From: a virus
Virus record (IMG/VR): IMGVR_UViG_3300027708_000023
DNA length: 64,000 bases
Reading direction: 5' to 3' (one strand)
Shown: one piece after another, positions 22,429 to 64,000 of the stretch
How positions within the stretch are numbered: the first letter of the stretch is position 1
Layout of the letters: each line of letters starts with the position of its first letter
Position numbers and translations under genes: made by a program
Notes under the pieces: model-generated
What the model was told of the DNA's origin: nothing
Databases searched by the model: none
The model's input: the letters and a program-made list of their open reading frames with translations, nothing else

Positions 22429-22449
22429 AATCTATCCTTTTAAAGTCAG

Positions 22450-22802
22450 TGGACTAGAGGGGAGTCGAACCCCTGTCCAGAATAAACATCAATATAAACT
22501 TCTACATCGTTAGTTGATTGTTATCACACTACCAACAAAGCTATCAGAGTTATCTGCGTCAGATTGAGTACAATCATCATTCCTATTTATGTCTGGTAGG
22601 ACTACCATATCCGAATATCGGAGTCAGCATGATTTGGTAATAAGGCTCATGCCGCCCCACCCATTACCTAATTAATTAGGCAGCGAGAGCGAGAGTTGAA
22701 ACTTCGCCAATTAACAATTTTAATCGACTTTTAAACTGGCCGGTCGATTAACCAGTCGATGCAATCTATACCTATTTTACCTGTCGATACCTTTACTAGC
22801 CC
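22450..22802 (-). ncRNA. ssrA: tmRNA; predicted tag (A)GEVSTLALAA*
   Basis: 5' GGGCTAG pairs with 3' CTAGTCC-A (G3.U70); T-arm AGGGG-TTCGACT-CCCCT; internal frame GGC GAA GTT TCA ACT CTC GCT CTC GCT GCC TAA. Confidence 0.93.
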
Positions 22803-43599: not shown

Positions 43600-45533
43600 A
43601 AAACATTGTTTTAAATGCTCTATATAGAATACACTATAAAGACAGAGCAGCTACCGGTTTATACTAAAGATTGGCAATAAAAAGTTTTTAGCCTTGACAG
43701 AGTCCTGGAAAAATGATATGTATTATGCAGGTGCGTATGATAAATAAGGGTTAAGAAGTTATAGAAGGGTATACTACAAGAGAGTAGTATCTACTATTCT
43801 AGGTAGCTCACACTAACAATATTCTCAGTTCCAAACTCACCAAAAAATTCAGGGTCCTCATACAGTTTTTTATTTAGATAATCTGTGATGTCTGTTTTAC
43901 TAATACATTCACAATCATCATTTGGTATGGCCAAATCCATTTGTATGGTAACGACCCGAATAGTCTGATTATTATCCATGATTTTTAGTTACCCCTGAAT
44001 CCCTCATATAGACCAAAAACAATACCAACTCCAAAGAAGAGGCCTAGCATTATAATTCCTGAGGTTAAAGAAAAGTTGACCACAGCCACCACCACCTTAG
44101 TATACCATATCGGCTCTGTTGACGCAAAGCCTTGATGGTAAACAACTTACAAGAACATCTCACCGCTCTTGTTAGATTTTAATACTTCCAGGTTTCCAGA
44201 TTAGTCCTATTAACAATCCTAGAATAAAGTTTATTCCTGCAACATAAACAATATTCTCATAAAACTTGCGCACACTCAAGTATCCATAAAAAATATCATG
44301 AGCCATATACTCTTTAAAAGAACTATTAGTAAGAATTTCCAGTTCCGTCTCCATCATAGAGACTCCGATCCATGCGAATAAACATCCGCAAAAAATTGCT
44401 CGAAATATTCTCCACAATACCAACATAAAGCCCCCACAAGAAAGTGGCCCAGCCTATTAACTATTACACCACTAATCCTTTAAGACCATTTTAAGCTTTT
44501 TAGTAATGTTGTCAAAAATCTTATTAACTGGTCCAGTTAGAGTATAGTCTTTCTTATAAGCATCAAGAGCATCCAACAGTTTCCAAGCTTCTTGTTTATT
44601 AATATCAATTTCCATAAATTCTCCAGAATTACTGCTTAGTATCTAAAAGGATTAGCATAACAACCACTATAACTATTAGTAACATTAGTTCTCCAGAAGG
44701 TCAGGGTAGTAGTCTTTAATTTGATCTTCCAACATTTTATTGGTCAATCCCTCTTTATTATCTCTCAACATATCATAAGCAAAATTGTACAGAGTATTAA
44801 AGTCCATATCGTCCAAGAGACGGCTACAATAGGTACTCATAATCTCTTGTCTATTTTCATCAGTAACTTTCATTAGTATTTATTCTCCCCATTCACACTA
44901 ATAATACCAGCATCAACATCAGTTCCACACATAGAACTATCAACCAACTGGTCATTGAGCCAGTCAATAAAATACTCGTAGTCAAAATCCTCAGAGCTAT
45001 TTATTTCTAGTACAATTTTCATTTCTTTCCTGCATCATTCTCAAGGGGTCTGTGATTTAGCCTGACTACACTATCAGACTACTAATCTAACCATCTTTAT
45101 CTATTGAGAATTAGTCTCAAAAATCAGCTTCTTTGTTACTATCGTTGTTACACTGTTTAGTATACCATATCGCAGCATCGGTTGCAAGTGGTTGAAACAT
45201 AAGAACTTAGAAGCAGTGAACCATGTTACTATAGTCACTATTCTCGCTGACTAACAGCAACGGCAGCAAATCCGCTGGATTAGGCGAGACAAATGAATAT
45301 AATCCTATCTTTACATTATTCATTATTATTTTAACCTAACCCTTTGCCCAGTAACCACTTACGTCCATATACAGTATATCGACATCGCAACCCTTTGGCA
45401 ACACTGAGCTTACGAGATTCTTTTACTAAATTGACGTAAGTCGTTGGTATCAAATAACTTAGAGAAATTGCGGCCGGCCCGCCGCGTCGTAAGTCCTTTG
45501 GGAATAAGGGTTTACGTCAAGTGGTCTAGGGGT

Positions 45534-45570
45534 AAAAAAGAACCGCCACCCATTGCTGAGTGGCGGCTCC
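45534..45570 (-). terminator. Intrinsic terminator after the DUF932 gene
   Basis: GAGCCGCCACTCA-GCAA-TGGGTGGCGGTTC-TTTTTT. Confidence 0.85.
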
Positions 45571-45593
45571 CACATTACCCCCACTACGAGGTA

Positions 45594-46544
45594 TTAAAGT
45601 GCCTGAGCGAACTGCATGGCTTTTTCCAGAGCCTTGGTGTTGTCGTTCGCATTCGTTCCGAACCACAGGCTGTCGAGCCGATTGTCTTCGGTGCGACCCT
45701 TATTGTAATTCAGATACTCGTTGAAGCCGTTATAAGCGGCCCACCACGTTCCGCGAACCCCCGTCGCACTCTGCTTCGGGCCTTCGACCAGATTCAGAAT
45801 CTCGTCCATGATATTTCTGGTACGAGTCTTGATCTGATCATCCGGCGTACCGTCGATGTCGAGCATCACCTTGACATAGCGACGAACGTCGGCCTGATTG
45901 AAGTTCTTCGACGCGAGGAACTTGAACTGCTCCGCAGTCGCCTCAAACTCCATGTTGATGTTGTCCATAATGTCTCGCACGTTTTCCAGATTGGTCTTGC
46001 TGGAACGTGTGTGACGAATACGGATCAACTTGGAACCACTGCTCTTGCTATGGGCCATTGCCATAGTGTTAGCACACACAACACGGATCGGCGTATAGCC
46101 AACCCGGATAGCGGTCGTGCCATCGTGCGAGTTACTGAGAAGAATGAACTTCCCAACCTCGTCACCCTTCACGATCTCGCTATTGTCGCGGTTCAGTTGG
46201 GCCAGAACCCAAACCTTCTGACCGCTGTGGAGCGAACCGGCAGTATGCAACGCACACTCGCCAGCATCCAGAAACGGCTGGAACCAATCGAACGCCTCGC
46301 TGTTTTGCAGCGGGGTGTATCGCGGGCCGACAACGCCCAGAATACTGGAGTCTGTCTTGCGATAGGTCGCACGGGCCGGAACGGGTTCGCCGTCCACCGT
46401 GAACAAATCCTTCAGACCGACTTCCCAATCCAGACCGGCAGCGGTCATAGCTTCCGAAACCGTAGGGGCTTCGTCAAGCTGGTTCCCAAGGCCGTGCCAC
46501 GGGGTCGCACCAACAAACATCATCTGTTCAACTGCATGAGCCAT
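45594..46544 (-). CDS. DUF932 family phage/plasmid protein
   Basis: PWHGLG, AGLDWEV, Y.P.QN, LSNSHDG, RVVCANT, GTWWAAYNG..EY; visibly GC-rich. Confidence 0.9.
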   Translation of the reverse strand: MAHAVEQMMFVGATPWHGLGNQLDEAPTVSEAMTAAGLDWEVGLKDLFTVDGEPVPARATYRKTDSSILGVVGPRYTPLQNSEAFDWFQPFLDAGECALHTAGSLHSGQKVWVLAQLNRDNSEIVKGDEVGKFILLSNSHDGTTAIRVGYTPIRVVCANTMAMAHSKSSGSKLIRIRHTRSSKTNLENVRDIMDNINMEFEATAEQFKFLASKNFNQADVRRYVKVMLDIDGTPDDQIKTRTRNIMDEILNLVEGPKQSATGVRGTWWAAYNGFNEYLNYNKGRTEDNRLDSLWFGTNANDNTKALEKAMQFAQAL

Positions 46545-46587
46545 AATCATCCCTTTCGTGTTGCTGTTCAATCGTTCTTGTCCACTG

Positions 46588-46616
46588 ATTCTACACTATA
46601 TTATCGGCAGTGTCAA
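46588..46616 (-). promoter_or_regulatory. sigma70-type cassette promoter with CCGATA spacer motif
   Basis: TTGACA-17 bp-TAGAAT; the same design precedes most modules. Confidence 0.8.
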
Positions 46617-46698
46617 GCGAAAACTTTGGAAAAATTCCGCAGGTCGCAAGTGGTTGGTAGATAAGGACTTACGGCGACCGGGGCCGCCCCAGCTTGCC

Positions 46699-47205
46699 CT
46701 AAGTCTTTGGCTGGTAAGGGTTTAGGATTATCGTGCCAAAATGCTTCTCAAAAAGTTTAGAATCTGTAGAAGCATTGAAAGAACATTCTTCACCAAGATA
46801 GAAGTATGCTCCGATACACTTTGCTCTTGGAGTATCATCAGAAATACTACCAATAATATGTTTAAGAGTATCTCCAGAACAAATCAAATCATCCACAATA
46901 ACATATCGTGATGGAGAAACGCCTTCAAGGAAAAATTCGCTATATCGCTTTTCATCCTTACGAACAACGATAATATTCTTATTGAGAATCTCCGCAATCT
47001 GTGGCACTACCATCAAACCACTTACGCCACAACAAGCAATACTGTCAAAATCGTTCTCAATCTTACGCAGAGAACAAACGGCTTTTATAATCACACCATT
47101 CCGATATTTATGATTTAATACTCGGCTAGTATGAGCCGCTCCTTGAATGATTTTACCATCTGGTGTGCGACGAAAATCATCTAGTTCTTGCTGGAAAGCG
47201 CTCAT
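46699..47205 (-). CDS. Type I phosphoribosyltransferase
   Basis: YVIVDDLICSGDT PRPP-binding loop; VVRK. Confidence 0.82.
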   Translation of the reverse strand: MSAFQQELDDFRRTPDGKIIQGAAHTSRVLNHKYRNGVIIKAVCSLRKIENDFDSIACCGVSGLMVVPQIAEILNKNIIVVRKDEKRYSEFFLEGVSPSRYVIVDDLICSGDTLKHIIGSISDDTPRAKCIGAYFYLGEECSFNASTDSKLFEKHFGTIILNPYQPKT

Positions 47206-47207
47206 AA

Positions 47208-47288
47208 AGTGTGTGGTTGGATTTGAACCAACAGCCCGTTATAAGAAAGGAATAAGAATAGGGTCTAGTCCCACCTAGAAGCACACAC
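47208..47288 (-). ncRNA. tRNA-shaped RNA with a pyrimidine-rich loop replacing the anticodon arm
   Basis: Acceptor GTGTGTG/CACACAC, D-arm TCTAG-GTGGGA-CTAGA, T-arm GTTGG-TTCAAAT-CCAAC, CCC-(23-nt loop)-GGG. Confidence 0.65.
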
Positions 47289-47519
47289 AAAGATTATTCG
47301 TTTTCGTCTTCTTCAATACTGGAATAATAATTCTTACCATAAGACGGAACCTCATCATCCTCTTCTGCATCTTGCATCCAAGGTTCTTCATCCAGACCAA
47401 GATCCTCGGCATTTTCTACCAATTCATCATAGTCATAATCATAACCATCATAATCTTCATATCTCATATTTTACTCCCTTTCTTACCCTTATTCTACACC
47501 AACAATCGTCATTGTCAAG

Positions 47520-47592
47520 TGGGCCCTCGGGGACTCGAACCCCGAACCTAAGAGTTAAAAGCTCCTTGCTCTGCCAATTGAGCTAAAGGCCC
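47520..47592 (-). tRNA. trnK: tRNA-Lys(UUU)
   Basis: AGGAG-CTTTTAA-CTCTT; canonical cloverleaf. Confidence 0.92.
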
Positions 47593-47850
47593 GCCTTATT
47601 ATTCGGTTACGGTAATTTCCTCGTAGGAATAACTTTGGACATTTTCGGTTGTAAAATCATACAGTTTGTCGAAAACATCGGCCCAATCAAAATCCTCTTG
47701 CACGGATAGTTGAATATCGGCCAAAGTCTTACCATCCTCAGTCAAAATATCATAGATGCGAAGGTTCTTCATCATCGTTTTCCTTTCTTGTTCCAATAGT
47801 CTACCATACTCTTATCGTCCTGTCAAGCGATCTAACTTTAAAATTTCCAA

Positions 47851-47922
47851 TGACCCCACGGAGAATCGAACTCCGATCTCCACCGTGAAAGGGTGGCGTA
47901 CTAGCCGTTATACAATGGGGCC
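47851..47922 (-). tRNA. trnE: tRNA-Glu(UUC)
   Basis: CCACC-CTTTCAC-GGTGG. Confidence 0.92.
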
Positions 47923-47951
47923 ATCCTCGCAACTCAACATCAGCCTCCGAA

Positions 47952-48038
47952 CGGAAGAAGTAGGATTCGAACCCACGGACCCAATTAAGGGTCTCCGGTT
48001 TAGTAAACCGGTGCATTAGACCACTCTGCCATTCTTCC
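47952..48038 (-). tRNA. trnS: tRNA-Ser(ACU)
   Basis: CCGGT-TTACTAA-ACCGG; long variable arm GACCC-TTAATT-GGGTC; G73. Confidence 0.85.
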
Positions 48039-48043
48039 TTAAG

Positions 48044-48115
48044 CTGTCCGACTAGGATTCGAACCTAGAACCAAGCGGTTAACAGCCGCCTACTCTACCG
48101 TTGAGCTATCGGACA
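48044..48115 (-). tRNA. trnN: tRNA-Asn(GUU)
   Basis: GGCGG-CTGTTAA-CCGCT; G73. Confidence 0.92.
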
Positions 48116-48445
48116 TCAATTTCCAACTTCTTCATTCAATGGGTTCACCTAACGAACCTTTAATCTCTTCTTCTTTTTCAATCAATTTATTTGCATTGAT
48201 AATGCCCCACAGTCTGTGGTCAATGTCGCTTATTGTGCTCCATATTACTTTACTTCTGTCATTACATCGATCAACTTCACGATCCAGTTGTTCACTAAGA
48301 CTCCTAGTCCACATAGGGCAATATTGCATTCTGTCCATCAAGAAATATATTTGAATTTGTTGAATAATTAAAGTTATTATAATGATCGTATAAAATGAAG
48401 CTTTGATGTATTTCATTGTCATGTTTCTCTAAAAAACGAACATAA

Positions 48446-48516
48446 TTCCGGGACTAGGATTCGAACCCAGACAAAGAGAACCAAAATCTCTGGTGCTACC
48501 GTTACACTATCCCGGA
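48446..48516 (-). tRNA. trnQ: tRNA-Gln(UUG)
   Basis: AGAGA-TTTTGGT-TCTCT; U1-A72. Confidence 0.9.
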
Positions 48517-48517
48517 G

Positions 48518-48590
48518 AGCCGATGGTCAGAATCGAACTGACGACAGGCAGTTTACAAAACTGCTACTCTACCAACTGAGTTACATCGGC
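48518..48590 (-). tRNA. trnT: tRNA-Thr(UGU)
   Basis: GCAGT-TTTGTAA-ACTGC. Confidence 0.92.
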
Positions 48591-49409
48591 AATCCTACTA
48601 TTATAGTCAATAGTCCCCATTCTCGCAAGCCCTGCGGTTTTCAGCGGATCGGGTTCGTGTTCGCTTGGGGCGATTGTCCATAACGGTGTGACGGTGTTCC
48701 TTGTGTCCCGTAGGAACTTGCCACTGCGGTCGTACCTTGATCTTGATATGATTGCGTCGTGGCCTCATATCGTCGTTGTTGTGGAGCGTAATCATGCCAT
48801 TGTCCATTTTCGTGTAGGTAAAAAACTTTGTCAACATTAGGGTCGTAAGCCATCAGACAGTATTGTACCGGATAAACTACTTTTGTCAAGGCCGGTTTCT
48901 GAGGCATGGGAGGGAATTTTATATCACCTTTCTGATAATCTTTTACACCATTATAGGCTAATCCCAAAACAGCAATCAGAATCCCAACCCACTGGATCAT
49001 TCTCTCACCCCTCGTTGATAGTCGTCTCGTTCTCATATATCTATTATCGACCAATCCAGAGTAGAAACTTTAGGAGATTTTTGGATTTGCTATAAAGTGT
49101 TGTGGGCTAAGGACTTACGTCAAAGCCGCCCGGCCCCGCTCGCCCTAAGTGCTTATGCAGTAAGGGTTTGCGGCTAGTCTTACTCTAAAGTCCATCCGGC
49201 ATCTTTTAGAATATGGGTAGTATGTAACACACAAGTTAATCCATCAGCATTTGTATAGTCTTTATATCCACGTTCATCAAGATAGATGTGCTCATCTAGT
49301 GTATCATTTTCATTTGTTTCCCATATAGCATCCATCGCAGCATCCCGTGGACATTTGTTGCAGGAATAAATTAGTTCTAGTGTTCCACATTTGATATAGT
49401 ATTTGCTCA

Positions 49410-49973
49410 TTAGTAGCCCCTCCTGAACAGTTCACATTCGGTACAGCCACAAGCTCCGTAACTATCAACATCATCATAATCAAACTTTCCATAAATATCT
49501 TCATCCCAATCAGTAAAGCTCTCAACCCCAAGGTCGATAGCAACCGCAACCCATTTCCCCTTACGTCGGATATAACCAAAATTACCTTTATGGGCATCAT
49601 TATAGTCTAACCCATATTCTTCTCTCAAATCATAAACTACTTCATCAATAGCAACCCCATTCTTACATTCACTCTGAAAACATTCACCATCACAATCTTC
49701 GTCATGGCACTCTGGCATAGGTCGAGCAACTTCGGTCAAATAACCATAAGCAGTCAACTCGCCATCATACCTACGAATCATACCAACATCCCCATATACC
49801 ATAGGGGCCAAATCAAACTGAGCCAGATGCTTTTGAACCCGATGGGCAAACTCTGCCTCTTGCTCATTCTCAAACTCTTTGAAGCCCACCCGCTTACGGT
49901 TAATCTTTTTGTCTTTGATAATATAGAAAGCATTCTTACTTCCCTCATCATCATACAATCCAACGTAGCTCAT
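49410..49973 (-). CDS. Minimal protein-kinase-like fold protein with Cys insert (paralog of 11564..12088)
   Basis: VGFKEF, LAPMV, YLTEVA, DAHKGNF, IDLG; C-terminal CGCTEC. Confidence 0.55.
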   Translation of the reverse strand: MSYVGLYDDEGSKNAFYIIKDKKINRKRVGFKEFENEQEAEFAHRVQKHLAQFDLAPMVYGDVGMIRRYDGELTAYGYLTEVARPMPECHDEDCDGECFQSECKNGVAIDEVVYDLREEYGLDYNDAHKGNFGYIRRKGKWVAVAIDLGVESFTDWDEDIYGKFDYDDVDSYGACGCTECELFRRGY

Positions 49974-49984
49974 TTTTATTCCTT

Positions 49985-50689
49985 TCAATGGGCTGGAAAC
50001 AAGACATTAGCCAAACCACGAACACACAAGTCACATGATATACTATCTTTAGTGCCAGTGCAAGTGATTTCCGAACGACCGCGACGGATTTCGGGACATA
50101 CCACAAACTTTGTGGCATTGAGAACCACCAGCTTTGGCAGTGCTTGTCGCCATGCTTCGGCTTTTGCTTTGCTTTTAGGACGCTTCGGAGCAATCTTCAT
50201 GTCGCTGTCACACCATGCGAACAGCTTGAAACCCTGTGCCAGTGCTTCGCCCATATCATTATCATCATGCACACTAGCGTACACATTCATATACTTTTCC
50301 AGACTCACAAGCCTAGCATCGTAGATATGAGTATAGAACCACATATCGGGCAGACTATCACCATCGGCCAGAATACTCTCACAAGCCCACGTTACATTAG
50401 CAACATAGTCTAGGTCAAGTTCTCCATTGAGAAACCAGTCGCCACGTTCATGCCAGCGAATAGACTTCTCACGACGTTTTGCTTCCAGAATCATAGCACG
50501 GATTTTATTCTTTTCCGTTATGACATTAGCAAATCCGGCAGTGCGAGCATTTTTATACTGGTTTTCAGTAGCTTCGGCATAACATCCATTACCGAGATAG
50601 TCGCAATCGGGTGGGCAAGTATCGCCCACTGGACGCGAAACCACAATGCAACCCTTACCCAACTTATCATTACCGTCTGCTGTTTTCAT
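49985..50689 (-). CDS. Gp88-like Fe-S / radical-SAM-derived phage protein
   Basis: TCPPDC...GCYA, IRWHERGD, WFYTH, NVYASV, CP...C...CDLC. Confidence 0.65.
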   Translation of the reverse strand: MKTADGNDKLGKGCIVVSRPVGDTCPPDCDYLGNGCYAEATENQYKNARTAGFANVITEKNKIRAMILEAKRREKSIRWHERGDWFLNGELDLDYVANVTWACESILADGDSLPDMWFYTHIYDARLVSLEKYMNVYASVHDDNDMGEALAQGFKLFAWCDSDMKIAPKRPKSKAKAEAWRQALPKLVVLNATKFVVCPEIRRGRSEITCTGTKDSISCDLCVRGLANVLFPAH

Positions 50690-50854
50690 GTTCTTCTCCT
50701 GTGTCTACCGATTCTACACTATAGTATCGGCAACGTCAAGCAGAAAACTTGAAGAAATTATTATTGACGCAAGTCGTTGGTAGATAAGGACTTACGACGC
50801 GGCCGGCCCGCCGAACTTGCTCTAAGTGCTTTAGCAGCAAGGGTTTACAACAAA

Positions 50855-50928
50855 CGAGAGTGACGGGACTCGAACCCGCAACCTCTAGCGTGACAAGCTA
50901 GCGATCTAACCAATTGATCTACACCCCC
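50855..50928 (-). tRNA. trnD: tRNA-Asp(GUC)
   Basis: CTAGC-TTGTCAC-GCTAG; G73. Confidence 0.92.
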
Positions 50929-50933
50929 AACAA

Positions 50934-51005
50934 TAGCCCCAGCAGGAATCGAACCTGCAACTAGAGATTAGAAGTCACTTATTATATCCATTTAACTATG
51001 GGGCC
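50934..51005 (-). tRNA. trnR: tRNA-Arg(UCU)
   Basis: AGTGA-CTTCTAA-TCTCT; T-arm GCAGG-TTCGATT-CCTGC. Confidence 0.88.
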
Positions 51006-51619
51006 GTCAATACCGCAAGCCCCCACGGCGTCCCGTGGAGGCTCGCAGTCATTATAACTCCATAGAGTCGATCACGCAACCGTTTCCGTTTCCGTCTCCT
51101 TCTCTACCTTGCCGTCATGGGCATCACCCGCAGCCTCGGCAGTCACACCAGTCACCCTAGCACGCCACACCTTATAGCCCTGCTCGCTAAAAGCCTTGAT
51201 TCCAGCAGCCTTGACATTAGCATGAACATCACCAGGAAGCTCATCATTAAGAGCCTTAGTAAGGGTAGACACCACATCGGCCGAATCAATCTCGTCGCCA
51301 ACAATATCAACAGCAAAACTAAACTTTTTCATCTTATCTTCTCCAAAATTGTTATAGTTACCAAATCGTTCTAGTATCAGTATACGCTACTGTTACCCAC
51401 TTGTCAAGTCCGTCGTGATGGTTTCTTATGTTGTGCATCGTCGTGGGGTCTTGACTTGTGATACTCTCATTCTACAGTATAGTATCGTCATTGTCAAGGG
51501 CGAACTTGAGCGTCGTTGAAAGATTTTTGATTTTTGTCCTAAGTTGTTTGGCAGCAAGGACTTACGTCAAATTCGGCCGCCCCGCCTCGCCCTAAGTTCT
51601 TCAGGGACAAGGCTTTAGG

Positions 51620-51994
51620 TCAAGAGAGAAAACCCTCGCAACCCAAACCCACCAGATCACGCAGCAGTGCCTCTGCCGCTTCGGGCGTTTTCAGAGTCAT
51701 ACTCTGCTTGGTGTTAGCTGGGGCAGGATGCCATGTATCGTACTTCCAGCCACCAACCAGATAGTCAGTCCAATCTTTGGACTCTTTGAGACCCCATCCG
51801 GAGTGCAGTCGGATAGCCTTGATGCACGGGATACGGTTGTCCGTATTCATGCCACCAGTGATAGTCACCACACGACGCTGGTTCACACCCAGTGCCACTT
51901 CCAATGCACACACAATCTTGTCGAACATATCCAGACTGCAACCATTTGCAATCATGTTCAACGACTCACGCACGCTCAGTTCGATTTTGATCAT
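51620..51994 (-). CDS. Ribosomal protein bL12 (L7/L12) C-terminal-domain-like protein
   Basis: RIPCIKAIRLHSGWGLKESKD ~ bL12 KIxVIKxVRxxTGLGLKEAKD; C-terminal EAAEALLRDL..LG. Confidence 0.7.
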   Translation of the reverse strand: MIKIELSVRESLNMIANGCSLDMFDKIVCALEVALGVNQRRVVTITGGMNTDNRIPCIKAIRLHSGWGLKESKDWTDYLVGGWKYDTWHPAPANTKQSMTLKTPEAAEALLRDLVGLGCEGFLS

Positions 51995-52475
51995 AAATTC
52001 CAAAACTTTCTGTATACTTAGGGTCTATTTCGTAAATGCCGTCAAAATTTCCGTTACGTTCTTCCAGAATATGAACCTGTCGCCCATCGGTAACTAAGGT
52101 ATCATACTCACTGTTATCCCATACAAACTCACCACCATCACTCTCCCTACGCCAATGAACATCACGAATGGGATTATAATACAACTTCTCAAGATTGTCA
52201 ATAGGCAAAGAGGGATAAAAATCCTTGCGAAGCATAACCTCCTCACACTGTACCCATCCACTCACATTCTTTTTTTGTTTCTTATTGACCCATTTTGCCC
52301 TAGCTACCTTATTGACCAGCTTGCAACCACGCATCTCCAACTGGTATTCTGTAGGGTCTACATAAAATTGGTCAACCCTTTTCTTACCCTGCATAATGTT
52401 TACTTGCCACTTCCGATAATTCTTGCCATTAAGCAGATGAAATCGTACTTCGGCATGTTTTTCGACAGTTTTCAT
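51966..52475 (-). CDS. Hypothetical protein
   Basis: 169-aa ORF inside a repeat-bounded module. Confidence 0.6.
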   Translation of the reverse strand: MKTVEKHAEVRFHLLNGKNYRKWQVNIMQGKKRVDQFYVDPTEYQLEMRGCKLVNKVARAKWVNKKQKKNVSGWVQCEEVMLRKDFYPSLPIDNLEKLYYNPIRDVHWRRESDGGEFVWDNSEYDTLVTDGRQVHILEERNGNFDGIYEIDPKYTESFGIYDQNRTERA

Positions 52476-55142
52476 TTGCCTCTCCCGATAACAACACAGT
52501 TGACCGGCTGATCTCCAACCATATCAACGTAGTACGCTGCGTGTCGCCCATTATACCAATAGAACTTCTCTTGTCCATCCCAGTTGTCGTTTTCAACAAG
52601 TGTGCCAGTAGAAACATCGGGATTATCGTAACCACCCTCATAGCCCGGAATCACCACCATGCTATCCTGCGGTACCATCTTCAGTTGTTCGATCAGTTCA
52701 GCAACAGTCATCATATTCCCTTTCGTGTTACCACTATCTTACACTACTATTATCGACAAGTCAAGAGCGAATCTTGAAAAAATATTGCTAATCATAAAGT
52801 CTTTAGAGATAAGGACTTACGTCAAACCCGGCCCCGCTGCCTTGCTCTAAGTTCTTTAGAGGCAAGGGCTTGCGTCAAATCCACAGATCGGCCGCGTTCT
52901 TCACAACGGCCTTTTCTTTGACAGACCCGACATTTTTGATCACGATCTCTTTGGTTCCCTTGAACTCTACCGTACCGTTAGAGTGCATCACCAGATAGGC
53001 CTCTCTGCCGTTCTTTCCCTTGAAGAAGTACAGAAGTTCACCCTCGTCTTCAAAGTCGCTTCGTGTCCACTGTCCAGTCATTTTCGCTTTTCCTCTACAA
53101 CTTGATAGAAACGCCCGTTAACGCTAATTGTACCACCAAACACGTCCCAGGTCAACTCCTCTTTCAAGGCCCGCTTGTGAGCAGCCAGAACAGCCCTGCG
53201 ATCCTGCTTCATCTGTTCCGCTGTCGCATCTGTCGAAATGATTCTCATGACTCGATTTTCTCCAGTTCGCTAAGGTAGGCATCCTTCTCGGTTCCGTCGT
53301 CGTACAAGACCCAGCACCAGACATTGTTTATAGCAGAGTCAAGCTGAATCACGGTTCCTTCGTGTCCGACCAATCCCTGCTTCTCTCCACGCGGCTTCCA
53401 ACGAATACGATCACCAACTGAAATATTGCTCATTGCAGATTTACTCCGTACTTGTGACACTGAAACCTCTCATCCATCTTTTCCGGCTCATCGCACGGTT
53501 CGATCATAATCGAAATACCGTTTGGTGCGGTAAACACATTACGGTAATCGCTATCTTCCCAATCGGGCATATCGTTGCCGACCCCGATCTGATCCATCAC
53601 CAGTGCGTCTGCATGGAACGTGGCCAGATCAAAGCTGCGAAATGCCTTCACATGAACCACTCGGTCATGCTGAACCATCAACACCAGATACATAATCAAC
53701 CTCCTCTTGTGAGCCTTTAGTCTACCATCTATTATCGGCATCGTCAAGGGAGAATCTTGAAAAATTATTTCTAGACGCAAATCCTTTAGAGGTAAGGACT
53801 TACGACAGATTCGGCCGCCCGCCCTTGAGCTAAGTCTTTTAGCAGCAAGGACTTGGATAATCTGGTGGGTAAGGTTGTTCTGGTGGCGGTGGTTTTGGTT
53901 GCCCCTCATCTGGCATCCACCAAGGAACGTCAAAATAATCAACATTGCCGGGAGCTTCACCACAATCAATATTATGAATACAAAAAGGATCATTATAGTT
54001 TATCCTATACTTTCCACGCCACACACCAATAGGCTCACCATAATAGATGATCTTTTGTCCATTAATAGGGCGGCGAGGCCCAAAGAAACTAATCCATTCC
54101 ATTTTGCACCTCTTTAGCAAAATTCTCTGCCGCTTCCTCTGTATAAAACCTACCAAGAAGTCCATTACTATTCCATACTGCCCATCTCTTATTTCCATCT
54201 ACAGCGTCACAGTAATATTCATCAATATCACCAATAAATATTTGTGATTCATTCATTTAGTCACCTCAATACTCCACTTAGTTCCCTTCAACTCAGCAAC
54301 CACACACATGTTCAGTTTAACCAGTTCGGCCACAATTTCGGCCAACCGCTCAATCTCGTTAATATTTAGATAGATCATTTCCAACCCTCTGGCATAGGAA
54401 TTCCTTGAAAGCTAGTATAACACACCACTAATGAATTGTCAAATTGTTTCCATTCTGCTGGCCCATCATCATACTCACCGTGCCACCACTCACCCCAACC
54501 ACCAAGCTCTTTATTCCAGGACAGAGTAAAAGGAAAAGAGTAATCTTTAACACAACAGATATAGAATCCATTTATAACAGGATTATTATAATTCCAGTTC
54601 ATTATATATTTCGACAAATTTCTACCCATGTGTCAATCAATTCCTTAGCAGTTATACCATGCTCATCTGCTAAAGTCAATGCCTCTTCCCGATTGGGTTT
54701 ATTTACAGCAGCCGATTGGCTCCTTAAAACCCTCAAAATCTTAATGATCGCCTCGTTTTTATTCATACCTATAAAAAGCTTCTCTTTCCTCGTATATATT
54801 TGCTATCGAGATTCTAACTTCAACCCATTCGTCTAGGCTGTCAAAATCTTCAAGGCTTTCGGCCAACTCACTATCCTCATAGCATTCTACGATATACTGA
54901 CCCCAACTCTCATAGTTATCATTAGCAAGTTCTTTTGCTTCAGCAATCAGTTCTGGTGTGACATTCAACATGACATTCTCCTCTTGTGTCAAGCCATTCT
55001 ACACTACTATTATCGACCTGTCAATGGAGTTTTCTTTAGAAGATTCTTTTTGACGTAAAGTTTTGTGGTATAATGAGTTAGAACAAATTCGGCGGGCCGG
55101 TTTTGACGCAAGTCCTTTGTTCACTGGAACTTACGTCTCACG

Positions 55143-56138
55143 GAGAGTATTGTATACCGGTTGTAAATGGATCGACTTGCAATGATATGGGAATCGCACC
55201 CCATACGCCGCTAGGACGTGCTTGTTTTTATCACTACGATAGTTTTACAATAAGTGTCCGGTATCACGCACATTACCAACCACAAGTTACCCTGTGGTAT
55301 CTATCCGACCCCTGTTTATAACCAGCGAACCATTTACGATCCGGTTCTATAATCCACCTAAGACTCGGTATTTAAATGCCCCGAATAGGCAATTACTTAG
55401 TGGAAACCGTCCACGCTGCTTCCTTTGGGTCATGACTCCAACATACACAGAGGCTCAGAGGCGACGGTTACTGGTTGTTCGGTATCCGGCTGTTAGTTCA
55501 GCGATCTTACCCGATGAAAGATAAGACACGGTTTTAGCGCCGTGGTGTTAATTCACTCCATTACCCGATGAAGGATAATACCGGATTGTATTATAACGTG
55601 GTGGGGACGCGATCCCCCATAGATTGGCATTACTATCCAGTGCGTAACCAACACTGTCAGCACCATCGCTGCCGCGACATGCGGTGCTTATCGTAATGAG
55701 TTACCCAACCTAGTCCAAGGCATGGACCCACGGGCTTTGGAACTGAAGCTCCTTTCTCTCATTCTCTCCCAAGTGTGACCGTTGGGTCTCTTGGCGAGTT
55801 CTTTCAGTTCGCTTGTGTTGTGCGGGAGTCACATCTTTATTATCCCGCGTCCCCTCTTCATTAGGTTATGCACAACGACTAACCGTCGCTGCGAGGGTGT
55901 TCACAATCAGATTGGGTTATGCCATACTCGGCCTTGCATTTAACCGTGGCTTCTTTGATATCATTCTGCCAGCGGCCCTCATCTGCTTGTATTGTGCGGG
56001 TGGGTGGTTTCGTCTTTTGGAATAAACCATGAACTTGACCACCTATTTAACTTCCCAGCTCCCATGGTAGCTATTGGGGAGTTGCTCATTGCAACCTTGC
56101 AACCCGCGTCGTATTGTCAATGATCGGCTCGAACTCTC
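55143..56138 (-). ncRNA. Candidate ~1-kb highly structured ncRNA
   Basis: Promoter TTGACA-17-TAGAAT at 56169..56141; no minus-strand ORF >=60 aa; three nested 5'/3' terminal helices; many hairpins; 3' T-loop-like hairpin. Confidence 0.75.
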
Positions 56139-56290
56139 GTATTCTACATCTATTATCGTCAATTGTCAAGCCCTCTCTACAGAAATTCTGAAAAATTTTT
56201 AGATTGACGTAACTCTATAGACCATAAGTACTTATGTCAAGCAGGGCCGCCCGCCCTATCCCTAAGTTGTTTAAGGATAAGGACTTACGA

Positions 56291-59200
56291 TTAGTTGTTA
56301 CTAGCCCCAATAGACTCACGAACCCTAACCACCCCATCCCTCTTGGCAATCTCAAGAGCACCACAGATAAAAGCCTGAAACTTATCCAGTTCTGCGGTCA
56401 TAAGCTCAGGATTATAATCAATAGCCTGTATAATCATCTTCATAGCAAAACTAGCCACACGACCAGCAATCAAACCTTTTTCTTCACTTGTCAGCATAAT
56501 TTTCTCCTTACTCCAAGTATACTCTATTAAAGACTCTTTGTCAACCCCTGACTATGTGCTGACTATGCCCACCCAGCCCAACCCCGTAGGGTTAGGAGGG
56601 ACAAACACGAGAGATTCTTTCAAGCATCAAATTCTTCCCGTATAGCTTTTCAGCCATAGACAACGCATGATAAGAACTGTACGCATGAACATAGCCTACA
56701 ATCTTAGTACCCTTCATGACCATGTATGTATCGGTAATCATACTTCTTCCTCCTCTGAGCCAGCAAACATTTCTTCCCAATCTTGAGCATCAAGCCCTGT
56801 TTTCAGAATCTCACGATCATCAGCACCAAGATACGGGAAGCAATTCTGAATCAAACCACCATTCAGCCACTCATTGGCATCACTGAGTTTGGTTGAGATA
56901 CAGAACGGACGACCACCAACACTGTAGCCGCTGAACCTAACAATATCACCTTCCACAGTGCGAGTCACGACATCTCTCAGAGCATACGGCTTATCTATAA
57001 ACATCTTTTTCTCCTTTTGATTCCCCATATTCTACACTACTATTATCGGCCTGTCAAGAGGAAAAACTTGAGCAATAAAAGATTGTCGTAAAGTATTGTG
57101 GCATAAAGACTTACGACGCGCCGGGCGGGCCGACCTCGCCCTAAGTCCTTTGGTGTCAAAGGGTTAGGGGTTGGTCAGTTAGTAGGCAGAGACTGCTAGT
57201 TTTTAGAACAGGTTAGCAAACCCGCTCTTGAACAAAGCACCAGCCAGAAGAGGCTTTCGGCACTTCGTCACTCGCTCTGCGTAGAAATTACGCACCTTAC
57301 CATCCGCAGTTCGACACGTTACCAGATTGGTAGTACGCACAAACTCAGGATCATTGATACGATATCGACTCTTTCGATTCAGTCTCTTAATCTGGTCAGC
57401 AGTCAGCGTCTGCTTGCCGATCACCTTAGCCAGAAAACGCTCATGCGTTCCATGCAAAGGCTGCTCGTAAACAAAGTTGAAAACCTGACCCTCTTGAGCA
57501 TTCGCCAAGCTAGCCTTCGATCCACCATAGACCGAATAGAAGACGAAACCCACAACAGCAGCGGCAACAGCCGCAAGAATCGAACCAAACAGAATCACAT
57601 CACTCATAGAAACCCTTTCAAATTGAAAACCGATCACAACATCCATGCCACAAGTCTACACTAATTATCGTCGTTTGTCAAGCACAAACTTTAGAAAAAC
57701 TTTCTGCCCAGTATTCTTCCATTTCTGCCATATTGATACCACTATCATTCCAAGCCACACAATCGGGTGTTTCGAATCGAATAGGGTCTTTGGTAAAAAT
57801 CTCACGAATCAAAATCTTGAAATGATCGTAAGAGGTACACTGCTTTGCCAGACTATACATATTTTCATCATTACTGATCCACAGACAAACATTCCATGTC
57901 TGGTAGTTTTGATAGCCGTTGTAACTTCCATCGGGACTCATGTTTCACTCTCTCTTTCTCGTATACGTCATTCTACCATATATTATCGGCAAAATCAAGG
58001 GGCAAACTTGAATCTTACGGAATTGTAAGGATTCTCGTAAAGTGTTGCAGAGTAAGGACTTACGTCGAACGCGGCCCGCCCCGTCGGCCCTAAGTGCTTG
58101 AACACAAAGGGTTTACGACGAGACATTATTTTTTACTCAAAATCAACAAAGATGATTTGAGCATAACCGCGAGGCTTAACTGTATAGCCGTCGCCATAGT
58201 CATAGGTCTCGGCCTTGACCGCTGTCATACCGGCCAGAGCCTTAGCTTTACGAACAACGCTACGCTGGCTAGCATTCTTCTTAGGGATGAACTCATAACG
58301 ATTCACCCAACCATAGTTAGCTTCACCACCAAAAGTATCCGTATGGGTAACAACGCACTTCATTTAACAAGTTCCTTTGCTTTCATGGTTTCAAGATACA
58401 ACTGTTCCAACATCTTCACACGACTTACTGCACGATTCGTCTCACGATTCATGAGTATAACAGCTTTTTCGTGTGCTGTCAATACCTTCTTTTTGGTTTT
58501 CATTTTTGATACTCCTAGCCAAACATCTCATACTCTTCATCGGTCAATGCTACCTCATCGGGACGATAGCAGTTATTGCCATACAAATCGCGATTCTTAG
58601 GACGCTTTTCCCATTCATCCATGAATCGGTTGTATTCTTCAAGACGCTTTTCTTCTTCACTTTTCATTCTTCGCTCTCTCTTTCTCTACTCTATTATCGA
58701 CAAGTATAGCATAGAAACTTTAGGTGTCAAGCGGGTAGTTTCCTTGCAATACTGTAAGGTTATCGTAAAGCATTGCAACATAAAGACTTATGACAAATGC
58801 GGCCCGCCCCGCCAGCCCTAAGTGCTTATGCACAAAGGGTTTAGGGGTAGTGCTTAGAATTTTCCTCCAAAATCTGGACTAATTCCAAGTTGCTGCTGAA
58901 CATCCTCGTCGTCCAGAATATCTTGGTCGATCATAAAATCCATGTCATCAAAGAACACTTCGATTTCTGGTTTTCCGTCATATGCGAGAATAGCAGCAAA
59001 ATCATAGATCATAAAGTAGGCCGTAGCTTGTACCCATGATTCTACAAGCCCAGAATGTAACTCAATAGTATCTCTATTAAGATAAACATACTCTATTGCA
59101 GAACACTTGGTACTCTCATTCATTTCATCCCACACGGGAATTTCTTGATTATGCTTATTCAGTTCTTCATCCAGCACACCATCTTCCCGCCACTGTACAT

Positions 59201-62200
59201 AATTTTCGTATGTGGCCTCGATAATACCCGTCGCAATCTTTCGATACTGCATTATACATTTCCTTTCAATTAGTCGTTATATGGCCCATCTTCATTGTAA
59301 TCCACAAATCCCACAGCCTCATCGGCATGGAAATCTTCCTGATAGTCTAAATCTTCCCCATAGCAACCGTAATCCTCATCGGTTCCCCATCCAGCGGAAG
59401 CCAACGCAGACTCAGCATCACCATCCATACTATCATCAAACGAATCATTCTCAAATTCTCCAACGGTATCATCTTCCTCGAAATCGTCGTATTCGTAGCT
59501 CATGATCAGTCCCTCACGATGGTAGTAATGTAAAACAAACCGATATAACCCACAACAAAAGCAATTGCACTAAGCATTAGTATACTCCTCGGGAACAAAT
59601 TCGTCAACAGCACCCACAACGTCGGCCCAATCCCAAAAGTTGACTTCCACACTGGGATCGTCAATTGGCTCGACCATCGGCTCGACAATACCCGCTTCGG
59701 CCATATCGTTCAGAATATCGTTGATCTCGTCGAAGTTCAGCATGATTCTGGTTCCTGTGGTTTCCGTTCGTGATGCTGGTATTCTACACTTATTATCGAC
59801 CCATTGCAAGCCCTAGCGTAAAAGTTTTTCCTTGCAATCTCGTAAGGTTGTTGTAAAGTGTTGCAGCATAAGCACTTACGCTTCGCGGGGCGGGCCGCGC
59901 TCGACGTAAGTCCTTACAGATGAAGGAGATACGTCAAGCCACATCCTAGAATGAAACACAACCCAAATAGAATATAATCACTGATTTTCATCATTTTCCT
60001 CCATATACATGATATTTGACATACTAGCATACAGAATAATACCAACAATATACCCAAAAGCCACACTAATAAAATCAAATTGATACATCCCTGTATCTCC
60101 ATTTTGGTTTAAGTGGTCAATCCCCGTATCCTACCCAGAAATCATCACCCTCATCATTCTTCATAAGAGTATAACCCCTAGACTTCATATTCTCATACTC
60201 GTTGATTCTCTGCCAGACTTCACAGAAAGTTTCCATAACTTTAAGGAAAGCCCCCATAACCCACACAAAAGGATATTCAATCATTCTCATAGTCAAGCCT
60301 CCACAGTGTTGGCAACATGGGTCATATTCTCACACTGGTCAAGATAGCACGAACGATATTCGGTCAGACCAATTTTCACAATCATCATCTTACCCTTGGG
60401 CTTGTCAAGAACCCTACGAACTTCACCACGGTAATTCTCACCCTTATAATCAAACTCGACCCAATCATACCGCTTAATATAGTCCATCATACATTCCTCT
60501 TGGTTACTGGTCATCTTCTCTATACCTATTATCGACATTCTACACTGCAAAACTTTAGTTGTCAACCTTACAAGACCCACAGGTTCCGCTGACTATGCTG
60601 ACTATATCCAAACCACCCAAACCCGTAGGGTTAGCTGAGACTCTCAATTTCCTTTATTTCTGCTCAGAGCAGCATGGCACACTATCTGATCAAGCGTATA
60701 CCATTCACCATCACCGTATCGGCCAGAAAGCCGAATCTTCAGATTCTTTCCGATAATTTGCTGGACAATACCATACCCGTCAACCACCTGAACCACATCG
60801 CCAACCATAATCTTTTGCATCTTTTTCCTCTTTTGAGTATTCTATCGAACTTTTCTGCCGTCGTCAACCCCTCTTATGCGGGGGTAGGTTGCGACCGATA
60901 ATACTTCGCCCACAGTTCATTCATCACGAACTGGACAACACGATCATGAGTACCACGACAAACGTAGTATCCCATGTGAATGTCGAACAGAGCAAACGTT
61001 CCATCCTCTTTCGGATGAAACGTAAACCCACACTTGTAGGCATACCCATTGATCTTACCCTTGACGGTCGAAACTTTCGGAGGCTTTCTCATTTTCATTT
61101 TCTCTCTTTCTTGTCTTACCATTATACATCTATTATCGTCATTTGTCAATAGGGTAGACCAGAAAAAGTTTCCTTGCAATGCTGTAAGGTATTTCTAACA
61201 TGATTTGGTACAGCATTTGCTATGGTGTCGTAAGTCGTTGTGGAATAAGCACTTACGTCAAGCGGGGCCGGCCCGCCTTGCCCTAAGTCCTTTAGCAGCA
61301 AGGCTTTACGTCAAGTTTTTCTTTTCCTGTATATCCGTTCAGTACCCACCCAAACGGGGAGGTAGAGCTTAGGGTACAGCTGTACATACTTACTCTTTAC
61401 ATAACGCTCAGCCTCTAGTGTAACGTCGTATACTAGTGTACAGTCGTTCATTCTTCCCCCTTGAAGCTGAACGGGCTGATTTCCAGATGAGCAACCGCCC
61501 CATACTGCTTGGTTAGTTCCTCGATACGCTCACGCGAACCCGGCTTGCCAACCGGAACGATCATGGTATCCTGTCCCCCCACATAGCGGGGGTCGGCCTT
61601 TTCCTTGCGAGTCTTGCCGATATTCTTCAAGGCAGTACGATTGAACTTGAGAACCTTTTCGGTCACAACGTAACGCTTGTGGTCAGTCACACCGTGAACG
61701 TAGTCAACGTCGATGATAAACTGCTCATCGGCTACTTCGTGGCGAACGGGAATCGCGATACCCTTGAAGATCGCACGGGCTTGACGCTTGGCATTTTCGA
61801 TGATGGGGAACTTGGTTTTCATTGTCTTTTCTCTCTTAGGGTCTATCGTTCTCTTGTGTGTGGATTCTATCAACAATTCTTTTGCCTATCAACCCCCACT
61901 ATGGGTGGGTCGATAAGTCCAGGGGTGTCCGTAGGCATCCACTGCGGGCGAAAGCTCATGGTCTGCACAGTCATGGAGATTTCCACCTTCTGTACGCACT
62001 ACCCACACATTGCCCTCATCATAGTAGTAGGAAACAATCTTTCCAACAATCTGTTTCTCGAATCCCTTGAGCATCACACTATCACCAATTTCGTACATTC
62101 TTTTCTCTCTTTCTTGTGTGTTCATTATACCAAAATGATTTTATGTTGTCAACCTTACAATGTCGTAAGGCTCACCATCCATTTTGACGATAGGTTTCGT

Positions 62201-63676
62201 TCAATGATTCGTTTTCACGACGTTGCCTACTATTCATAGGTTCATCACCAACTTCCCAATTATCCTTTAACGCATCATATCCATCATCAGAATTCTTACG
62301 AACATCATCGAAATCATCATAATCATACCGTGTGTCAGAATAACTCATTTTCTTTCCTCTTTCTTTTTCTTTCTTCTCTATCTATTATACGCTATGAATA
62401 GGAAAAGGTTCAAGAGAAATCCGGATATTTTTATGTCAAGAGAATTTGACAAAACTTTTCGTCATTTTCTTTCTCATTGGCATACCATTTGCTAAGTCGT
62501 CGTAAAGTCTTACTGGGTAAGCACTTACGTCGCGCCCGGCCCGCCCGCCTTGCCCTAAGTCGTTTAGGGACAAGGACTTACGTTCAGTGTTGCTTATTTA
62601 TCCTGCGATTCGCAAAAACCAGCAATGCCAAGCAACCAATGCCTAGTGTACAGCTGAGTACTGAACATCCGAACAGTGTAGCATAGAATTCAGCATATCC
62701 TACAGTAGTAGGCTCACAGTTAGGATGTCCCAAGCCGATAGCCTGCATTACGACAACAAGCAAACAAATCGAAACGCTCCACAACATCGTAAAGGTAAAA
62801 ACGTTCATTTTTTTCTTTCTTAGTAAATAAGGTTCATATCGGCCACAACCATACCATCTTCATACTCTAGGCCACATTCCAGATACCATTGTCCCTTGCG
62901 TTGATACACACGCACGGGCGAATACTGATTGATTCTATCCTTAGTGGTACTCGTATGCCAACCCCCACTATTGAGGGTAGCACTATTGTCGGGATGAATC
63001 TTTACCACATAGGTACTATGCAGCATGATCCCTACGCTACCATCAGGAAGAATTTCCGCATAGGTATTGTTGCCAACCTTGCGAGTATCCTTATTAGTCT
63101 TACCACGAACCATCTTCACTGCTTCACTGTGTGTCATGCGAGAACCTTTCAATAGTTGTAGTCGTCGTAGTCGTGGAGCATGGAATGGATAGCATTACCC
63201 ACCTCATGCACGGTATAGGTAATGAAAGCACAACCAGCAATCAAGGCAAACAGTTGAACATAGTCGATAATCGTCAGCATTAGGATCTCTCTTTCTTGTG
63301 TTGTTATTCTACATCTATTATCGACCAATGTCAACCCCTAGCAGCAAGAAAAACTTCCTTACAATACCGTAAGCTTTCTCTAAGTCTATATGGAATAAGC
63401 ACTTACATAGAGTTCGGCCCGCCACGCTCGCCCTAAGTCCTTATAGGGCAAGGCTTTGCGTCAAGAGGCGTGAATGAACACTTGTTCACTTCTCAGTCTG
63501 CTATTGATAGTTACGATCCAGTTTTTTCCGCTACCATCCTCACGCATGATACCGTTGATAAGGCCCACATGAGCGTTACCCTTGGGGTCGAGCACGCAGT
63601 GATACTTGCCAGCTCGCATAGCAGAGAAAATCTTGTCAAGGTTATTCGTTACCGGCTTATAGGCTGTTGCAAACAT
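56291..63676 (-). CDS. ~20 small hypothetical genes in repeat-bounded, individually promoted modules (e.g. 57203..57646, 58854..59252, 61448..61876, 62820..63152)
   Basis: Minus-strand ORFs with AG-rich SDs, each block preceded by a TTGACA..TAGAAT/TATAAT promoter. Confidence 0.6.
58013..63374. promoter_or_regulatory. Palindromic operator-like site CCTTRC-N6-GTAAGG (6 copies)
   Basis: 58013, 58742, 59830, 61172, 62153, 63357; each lies just upstream of a module -35 box. Confidence 0.65.
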
Positions 63677-64000
63677 GTTTTTCCTTTTCTTTCTTGTTTT
63701 TCTATTATACAGTATAGACTAGGTGGTTGTCAATACCTTAGAAAATATTTTTTAGTGAGAGGAAGCCGGAAGCCTTTTGATGATTCGGCTACCATAGGCA
63801 GTTTCATCGCCCTCCCATTTGCTCCAACCGGCTTCATACGCTTCGTTTTCAGTATTGAACGGGCCGATGAAGTCGATTTCACAATCCCAAGCGTCGAAAA
63901 CCTGAATGAAATAAGTCATTTTCTTTTCCTTTATCCTATCGTTCTCTTGTGTCTCTATTATAGCTTATCGGCTAGACGGCTGTCAATACCTTAGTAGTAA

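Follow-up and report, generated by a model that had tools for sequence, protein, structure and literature searches.

An 82-bp double-box element phased with early promoters in a clade of large uncultured phages

The early gene array and its elements

Here, we analysed a 64,000-nt stretch of viral DNA from the IMG/VR record IMGVR_UViG_3300027708_000023 (the window, meaning the whole stretch), in which an 82-bp double-palindrome element recurs among short early-type genes. The window is part of a large phage that encodes rIIA and rIIB, an ATP-dependent ligase, a clamp loader, a transfer-messenger RNA (tmRNA) and 11 transfer RNAs (tRNAs), and its genes run on the minus strand. Megablast and blastn searches against INPHARED returned no match and hence no cultured relative, and the best protein matches among cultured phages are only ~30-36% identical; the source is an uncultured phage of ~230 kb, from a clade without a cultured member. 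The elements occupy an array (44000-64000) with a G+C content of 42-48%, as compared to 33-36% across 1-44000, and according to Pfam and PHROGs scans the array genes are mostly short open reading frames (ORFs) of no known function.

An earlier inspection of the letters alone, called here the sequence-only reading, had listed 16 elements, and every one of them was recovered at its place as an 82-bp unit readable as 11-7-11, 24 and again 11-7-11 bp. With a weight matrix built from these 16 copies, they score 70-118 bits, while the next best position in the window scores -16; the same scan found no 82-bp element in positions 1-45000. A 42-nt core pattern has 11 matches in the window, against 0.00 expected in shuffled sequence. 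The copies are as follows, from the highest coordinate down.

63379-63460, minus strand: E16, 82-bp double box; the stop codon of ORF 63461-63676 abuts it
62501-62582, minus strand: E15, matrix and core pattern; promoter TTGAAC-18-TATAAT at 62413-62384
61229-61310, minus strand: E14, matrix and core pattern; top matrix score, 118 bits
59852-59933, minus strand: E13, matrix; upstream ORF stop inside, at 59914
58764-58845, minus strand: E12, matrix
58036-58117, minus strand: E11, matrix and core pattern; orthologous copies aligned
57087-57168, minus strand: E10, matrix; promoter 57057-57029 starts 29 nt past the element
56208-56289, minus strand: E9, matrix and core pattern; precedes an ORF-free 1-kb module
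55054-55135, minus strand: E8, weakest copy, 70 bits; promoter 55024-54996 starts 29 nt past the element
53776-53857, minus strand: E7, matrix and core pattern; upstream ORF stop inside, at 53839
52793-52874, minus strand: E6, matrix and core pattern; promoter starts 28 nt past the element
51538-51619, minus strand: E5, matrix and core pattern; promoter 51497-51469 starts 40 nt past the element
50768-50849, minus strand: E4, matrix and core pattern; promoter 50739-50711 starts 28 nt past the element
49091-49172, minus strand: E3, matrix and core pattern; downstream site with TAAAG and GTCGATAA, no clear -35
46645-46726, minus strand: E2, matrix and core pattern; promoter 46616-46588 starts 28 nt past the element
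45435-45516, strand not assigned: E1, last of the array, core pattern; nearly symmetric, orientation ambiguous

The 29-bp box has the consensus CGTAAGTCCTT-N7-AAGGACTTACG, and invariant TAA/TTA cores stand at element positions 3-5, 25-27, 56-58 and 78-80. Successive cores are separated by 21, 32 and 21 bp, corresponding to 2, 3 and 2 turns of DNA, which places all four half-sites on one face of the helix. The N7 spacer columns hold almost no conserved information between copies, while the central 24 nt are as a rule G+C-rich, with a GGCCGGCC-like dyad exactly at their midpoint, and the element has the architecture of a symmetric triple dyad; in a few lineages, boxes and gap are retained but the centre is not G+C-rich. 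The spacing between boxes had been described as never varying, which holds for the window (53 bp in 16 of 16 copies) and only nearly so for the clade, where 576 of ~600 close box pairs (96%) are 53 bp apart and some relatives show 49-55 bp. Ahead of the last copy, E1, there is a canonical G+C hairpin and T run; the identification of E1 as an inverted boundary copy was dropped, the two orientations scoring 77 and 69 bits.

At least 120 IMG/VR stretches match the core pattern, and the matrix scan of fetched IMG/VR loci yielded 475 copies (431 unique). In each of five complete relatives, which are 229-244 kb long, there are 15-25 copies, all within one ~20-kb array and nowhere else. In a scan of bacterial genomes, which did not reveal the host, the element appeared only on short contigs of lake metagenome-assembled genomes (MAGs), for example from Lake Lanier, besides a few likely chance matches. 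These contigs are probably mis-binned phage pieces, and they suggest a freshwater origin of the phage clade; RFNS01000298, RFNS01000094 and RFNS01000242 are short element-bearing contigs of this kind, binned into a Lake Lanier alphaproteobacterial MAG. In Rfam, no family resembling the element was matched, the gathering score being reached by the tRNAs and the tmRNA only and nothing across 55-59 kb scoring at E<=1, and a full-text literature search with the arm sequences returned unrelated primers only. The element has no counterpart in Rfam or the searched literature: in position it is a variant of the promoter-early stem-loop (PeSL) cassettes of T4-like phages, from which it differs in anatomy and likely mechanism.

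Several further features of the window were recorded. The early region carries its own base composition, and 8 of the 11 tRNA genes lie inside array cassettes (47519-48590 and 50854-51005), while the tmRNA is at 22447-22802. Pfam matches in 1-45000 include Volactin and an MreB-like actin, ThyX, PspC, sulfotransferases, DUF1501 and three metallophosphatases. Within the array, the module at 55136-56207 (minus strand) lies behind an element-linked promoter (56169-56141). None of its ORFs exceeds 41 amino acids and no Rfam family matches it at E<=1; it may encode a long non-coding RNA or be a decayed cassette.

Gene ends, early promoters and helical phasing

The unit anatomy proposed earlier, in which an element is followed by a promoter, short early-type genes and the next element, proved correct, and the stop codons placed at element edges (51620, 52875, 63461, 56291 and 62584) or inside elements (46699, 53839 and 59914) are confirmed by the ORF table. 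Family-wide, upstream reading frames end at -3/-4, often with a TGA within a conserved cTTGA flank; other upstream ORFs end on the element's own TAA (positions 3-5, 17/18 or 56-58) or TAG (26-28). Downstream of each element, after an A/T-rich stretch, a promoter-like site is found on the minus (coding) strand, and 12 of these sites are strong matches to TTGACA-17-TAGAAT.

46588-63334, minus strand: span of the element-linked early promoters, consensus TTGACA-N3-GCCGATAAT-N-TAGAAT (also given as TTGACA-N3-(G/T)CCGATAAT-N-TAGAAT)
63334, 61149, 59809, 57998, 57057, 56169, 55024, 53747, 52764, 51497, 50739 and 46616, minus strand: starts of the -35 hexamers

Promoters of the same early type that have no element occur within the array as well as outside it, and the element is thus a regulatory layer on top of the promoter and not a part of it. 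The promoters themselves have further conserved features, namely (G/T)CCGATAA in the spacer and TAAAG ~8 nt upstream of the -35 (e.g., 57057-57029, 46616-46588, 17066 and 13916); the arrangement TAAAG...GCCGATAA resembles a sigma28 promoter, yet its spacing is ~2 nt above the canonical one.

Elements and promoters are in phase. Across the clade, -35 hexamers stand preferentially 17-18, 28-29, 39-40, 50 and 61-62 nt from the end of the element, and a Rayleigh scan of these distances has its maximum at a period of 10.5-10.75 bp, with p ~1e-10, 1e-5 and 1e-3 for 111, 69 and 49 clusters under successively harsher de-replication. In the window alone the phasing is weaker: six copies have distances of 28-29 nt and three of 37-40 nt, and the rest stand at 33, 42-44, 79 and 87 nt. 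An extra palindrome, CCTTAC-N6-G(C/T)AAGG, was seen between element and promoter at E11, E12, E13, E14 and E16 (e.g., 61172-61189 and 59830-59847), and these five copies have off-phase distances.

We also found four further single boxes that the sequence-only reading had missed, at 45386-45414, 45335-45363, 45183-45211 and 44123-44151, all of which overlap core promoters.

45335-45414, minus strand: box pair, 51 bp apart, bracketing the promoter TTGCCA-17-TATACT; centres at ~-34 and +18
45183-45211, minus strand: single box, its right arm forming the -35 (TTGCAA) of a TGGTATACT promoter; centre at ~-45
44123-44151, minus strand: single box overlapping the -35 (TTGCGT) of a second TGGTATACT promoter

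The promoters of the last two boxes belong to a second class, found a short way downstream of the array, that combines a weak -35 with the extended -10 TGGTATACT; in both, the right arm of the box supplies the weak -35 exactly 18 nt before TGGTATACT. The same register is held by ~26 non-identical orphan boxes in the clade, which sit exactly 18 nt before an extended -10. The single-box layout downstream of the array is conserved in all six genomes compared, as is the +18 box of the TTGCCA-17-TATACT promoter (6 of 6). By arithmetic from the measured distances, box centres at -45, -68, -78, -89, -100 and -111 fall on a single ~11-bp ladder.

Pairing and recombination

If the palindromes worked as hairpins, their arms should covary, and they do not. 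Mutual information over the 431 unique copies is dominated by neighbouring columns, with no long-range covariation and no pairing model that stands out. Among 54 diverse copies, a model of two local hairpins leaves 72.3% of cells paired, against 72.5% with partners shuffled, and an attC-like long-range (outer/inner) model 72.7%, against 74.8%; the covariation scores of both models are at or below those of the shuffles. Arm positions 6-9 are mismatched in about half of the copies, and predicted RNA folds vary from copy to copy, with z-scores of -1 to -3.6. Except at the centre of E1, no terminator-like site or U-tract was found at the elements, and no canonical intrinsic terminator was seen between units. 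By these comparisons, the element is not a folded RNA or a folded single-stranded DNA. Because pairing covariation is absent, its palindromy amounts to four independently conserved half-sites, the signature of protein recognition on duplex DNA.

The sequence-only reading had preferred integron-like gene capture by a tyrosine recombinase at attC-like sites, and this proposal failed on covariation, on the search for a recombinase above cut-off, on the collinearity of the arrays and on the scatter of switch points. As it had remarked, no recombinase gene is visible among the window ORFs in Pfam and PHROGs scans; in the five complete relatives, neither the tyrosine recombinase profile PF00589, an enzyme that it had proposed to look for outside the window, nor the serine recombinase profile PF00239 scored above cut-off, and the recombinase profiles gave one sub-threshold match, in one relative. 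The 11-7-11 arms, cited as a hallmark of tyrosine-recombinase sites, do have that geometry in all copies, but their spacers are not identical between copies.

Nor does gene order break more often at the elements than elsewhere. Arrays of relatives share a collinear backbone at ~80-88% identity, and gene-adjacency breaks among six genomes stand at 74% for gaps with an element and 75% for gaps without (p=0.76), an equality that is unchanged under stricter gene filters. The sequence-only reading had suggested a search for breakpoints inside the N7 spacer; the change-points of 225 de-replicated discordant-flank events are scattered between -15 and +113, and homology may switch at any point between the immediate upstream flank of the element and the promoter. 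Each cassette carries a promoter of its own, whereas integron cassettes are mostly promoterless and are read from a common one.

Cassettes nevertheless come and go. Several whole cassettes are present or absent between relatives, and a 165-bp unit, made up of an element, a promoter and a leader, stands in a relative between two genes that abut in the window. In one relative, an extra cassette has its junction at the last arm of an element, so that the upstream cassette retains almost all of the element and the downstream one has the last arm. These changes are consistent with ordinary recombination between repeats, of the kind proposed for PeSLs (PMC4122927), but not with site-specific capture. 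A separate observation concerns relative G004 (L127/L128). There, an insertion that separates the family 11 gene from the family 24 gene lies beside an extra element; it is an ORF on the reverse strand, A/T-rich and with many Cys and His residues, which looks homing-endonuclease-type.

A proposed regulator, rival explanations and known systems

The sequence-only reading had offered cooperative repressor operators or other protein-binding sites as an alternative, and it is this alternative that phasing, absent covariation and promoter overlap favour. The 29-bp box is probably a double-stranded operator for a dimeric, clade-specific regulator, which may be encoded by the phage, delivered by the virion or encoded by the host. 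Geometry, promoter phasing, distribution and the absence of covariation were observed directly; that a protein binds, which protein it is and whether it activates or represses are inferences.

With two boxes 53 bp (five helical turns) apart, two dimers would be held as a tetramer on the same side of the DNA, and the A/T-rich region and -35 of each early sigma70-type promoter follow immediately downstream. As the element sits whole helical turns away from the -35, the bound protein could touch or constrain RNA polymerase. A single regulator might in this way switch or insulate ~20 tandem early units and also control the next promoter class, like an early-to-middle switch of a phage: the double box may repress, boost or insulate, and the single boxes look class II-type or occluding. 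Through its repetition, the unit of element and promoter incidentally also lets general recombination gain or lose cassettes, as PeSLs do. More tentatively, and with less confidence than in the operator itself, we picture an undescribed phage transcription-switch protein acting at phase-locked positions: a tetramer on the double box that gates or insulates the early units, a dimer near -45 that turns on the class with a weak -35 and extended -10, and a joint operator and promoter that serves as a gene-adding module. If true, this would be a new early-to-middle switch across a whole clade of uncultured ~230-kb freshwater phages.

Several points weigh against the operator reading. Only ~9 of the 15 spacings in the window alone fall in phased classes, which makes the periodicity a statistic of the family; related copies cannot count as independent, and de-replication reduces the significance, although it does not abolish it. 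Promoters as close to consensus as the early ones should need no activator, and the G+C-rich core, which some lineages lack, has no explanation in the model. No recognisable DNA-binding domain was found in Pfam batch scans (83 and 52 window ORFs) or in Pfam and PHROGs scans of the larger cassette proteins. Among the window's products, a 47-amino-acid basic protein (58363-58503, minus strand) is 89-91% identical in three relatives and 72% in a fourth, and its gene is translationally coupled to the next conserved gene. Its structural model is one long helix (predicted local distance difference test, pLDDT, 91), it has no informative neighbour in the Atlas, and it is only a weak candidate for a nucleic-acid binder.

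The rival explanations rank, by likelihood, as an architectural or insulator site, a PeSL-type terminator cassette, a recombinase site and a small mobile element. The first is unlikely, though best placed among them: a nucleoid-type, gyrase-like or roadblock protein would insulate ~20 tandem units, by blocking read-through or acting as a supercoil barrier, or organise the early domain like matS or parS. Such a site would suit the position of the elements exactly at the 3' end of each unit, the lack of canonical intrinsic terminators between units, the clustering in a single 20-kb domain, the symmetric triple dyad and the absent pairing covariation. However, the phasing with the downstream -35 and the fixed register of boxes over the -35 point to an interplay with RNA polymerase, and we know of no gyrase or nucleoid-protein preference that resembles these sequence-specific 11-bp arms.

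It is somewhat less probable again that the palindromes are RNA hairpins which end or stabilise the upstream transcript, in a PeSL-type promoter and terminator cassette whose repetition serves shuffling by homologous recombination. The order of parts is the same, a stem-loop position followed by an A/T-rich stretch, a sigma70 early promoter and a region of small ORFans (PMC4122927), and the presence or absence of whole cassettes, the one insertion with a crossover inside an element, and the gain or loss of an element-plus-promoter unit between conserved genes would all be expected. Against the hairpin itself, pairing is at the level of shuffles, arm positions 6-9 are often mismatched, U-tract terminators are missing and predicted folds are inconsistent between copies. 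In addition, cassette indels and one in-element crossover are not accompanied by any enrichment of gene-order breaks at elements, and a terminator needs neither a 53-bp box spacing nor phasing with the next promoter. The comparison with PeSLs made in the sequence-only reading fits the position of the element, but a terminator stem is not supported.

An integron-like or tyrosine-recombinase system, with boxes as attC-, dif- or loxP-like core sites cut by a phage or host (XerCD-type) enzyme, is very improbable and already largely refuted. It could account for the 11-7-11 geometry, for two such sites adjoining a stop codon, for cassette-level indels and for the junction that divides an element before its last arm; against it stand the missing PF00589 and PF00239 matches above cut-off in five complete relatives, near-informationless N7 spacers that would make partner sites heterologous, the absence of attC-type covariation, junctions scattered over the whole element and its flanks, collinear arrays without breaks enriched at elements, and a promoter on every cassette. 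Equally improbable is a small mobile element of the miniature inverted-repeat transposable element (MITE) or REPIN type, 82 bp long, ending in inverted repeats and dispersed by a transposase or RAYT-like enzyme, since its terminal and subterminal inverted arms, fixed length and presence or absence between conserved genes at one junction are offset by confinement to one array, in one orientation relative to promoters and always joined to one, by a polymorphic insertion that includes promoter and leader, by the lack of a visible target-site duplication and by absent hairpin covariation.

Of large uncultured phages, mostly the gene content is known, and hardly anything of their regulatory logic has been read. 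The element offers hundreds of natural variants, an exact geometry and a measurable promoter phase; it defines a regulon of ~20 early units and a second promoter class without culture, and the 29-bp box is a handle for the regulator. Stop-codon-adjacent palindromes in hyperplastic regions of phages need not be terminators or recombination sites, and tests of covariation, breakpoints and phasing can separate the operator, terminator and recombination readings.

Among known systems, repetitive extragenic palindromic (REP) sequences, bacterial interspersed mosaic elements (BIMEs) and REPINs are likewise paired extragenic palindromes just past stop codons, but our element is restricted to a single phage array, is bound to promoters and lacks hairpin covariation; the genome-wide dispersal and compensatory hairpins of that group were not found, and no search for a RAYT was made. 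Integron attC sites also have two inverted-repeat simple sites around a central stretch, at gene 3' ends and in tandem arrays. They differ in being served by an integrase and in their variable length (57-141 bp), whereas the element has a fixed length, no R''/R' or L''/L' pairing signal, no fixed crossover and self-promoted cassettes.

In position, the element comes closest to the PeSL of T4-like phages (Arbiol 2010; Comeau 2014, PMC4122927), whose cassettes join a palindrome, an A/T-rich stretch and a sigma70-like early promoter in a hyperplastic region and whose stem-loops are short G/C stems of varying sequence that act as terminators (PMC4122927). In both cases, a unit of palindrome, A/T-rich stretch, strong sigma70-type promoter, Shine-Dalgarno sequence and ATG is repeated among small early genes, and its copies flank cassettes that differ between close relatives. 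Unlike the PeSL, the element is an 82-bp double box of fixed geometry with sequence-specific arms and promoter phasing, its box also lies over core promoters, and it shows no pairing covariation, U-tract or enrichment of gene-order breaks.

The phi29 p4 protein and CRP, at class I and class II sites, bind face-of-helix-dependent positions upstream of or over the -35, and tandem CRP sites are 52-53 bp apart at CytR-regulated promoters. The element has no sequence similarity to these sites and differs in its ~20 tandem repeats and its G+C-rich central dyad. Like them, it has inverted half-sites about two helical turns apart, and one protein could act differently by promoter class. As in transcription-factor operators, the half-sites are conserved as sequence and not as pairs, the dyad geometry is fixed, and the sites are helically phased with core promoters or overlap them, in a class I/II-like placement.

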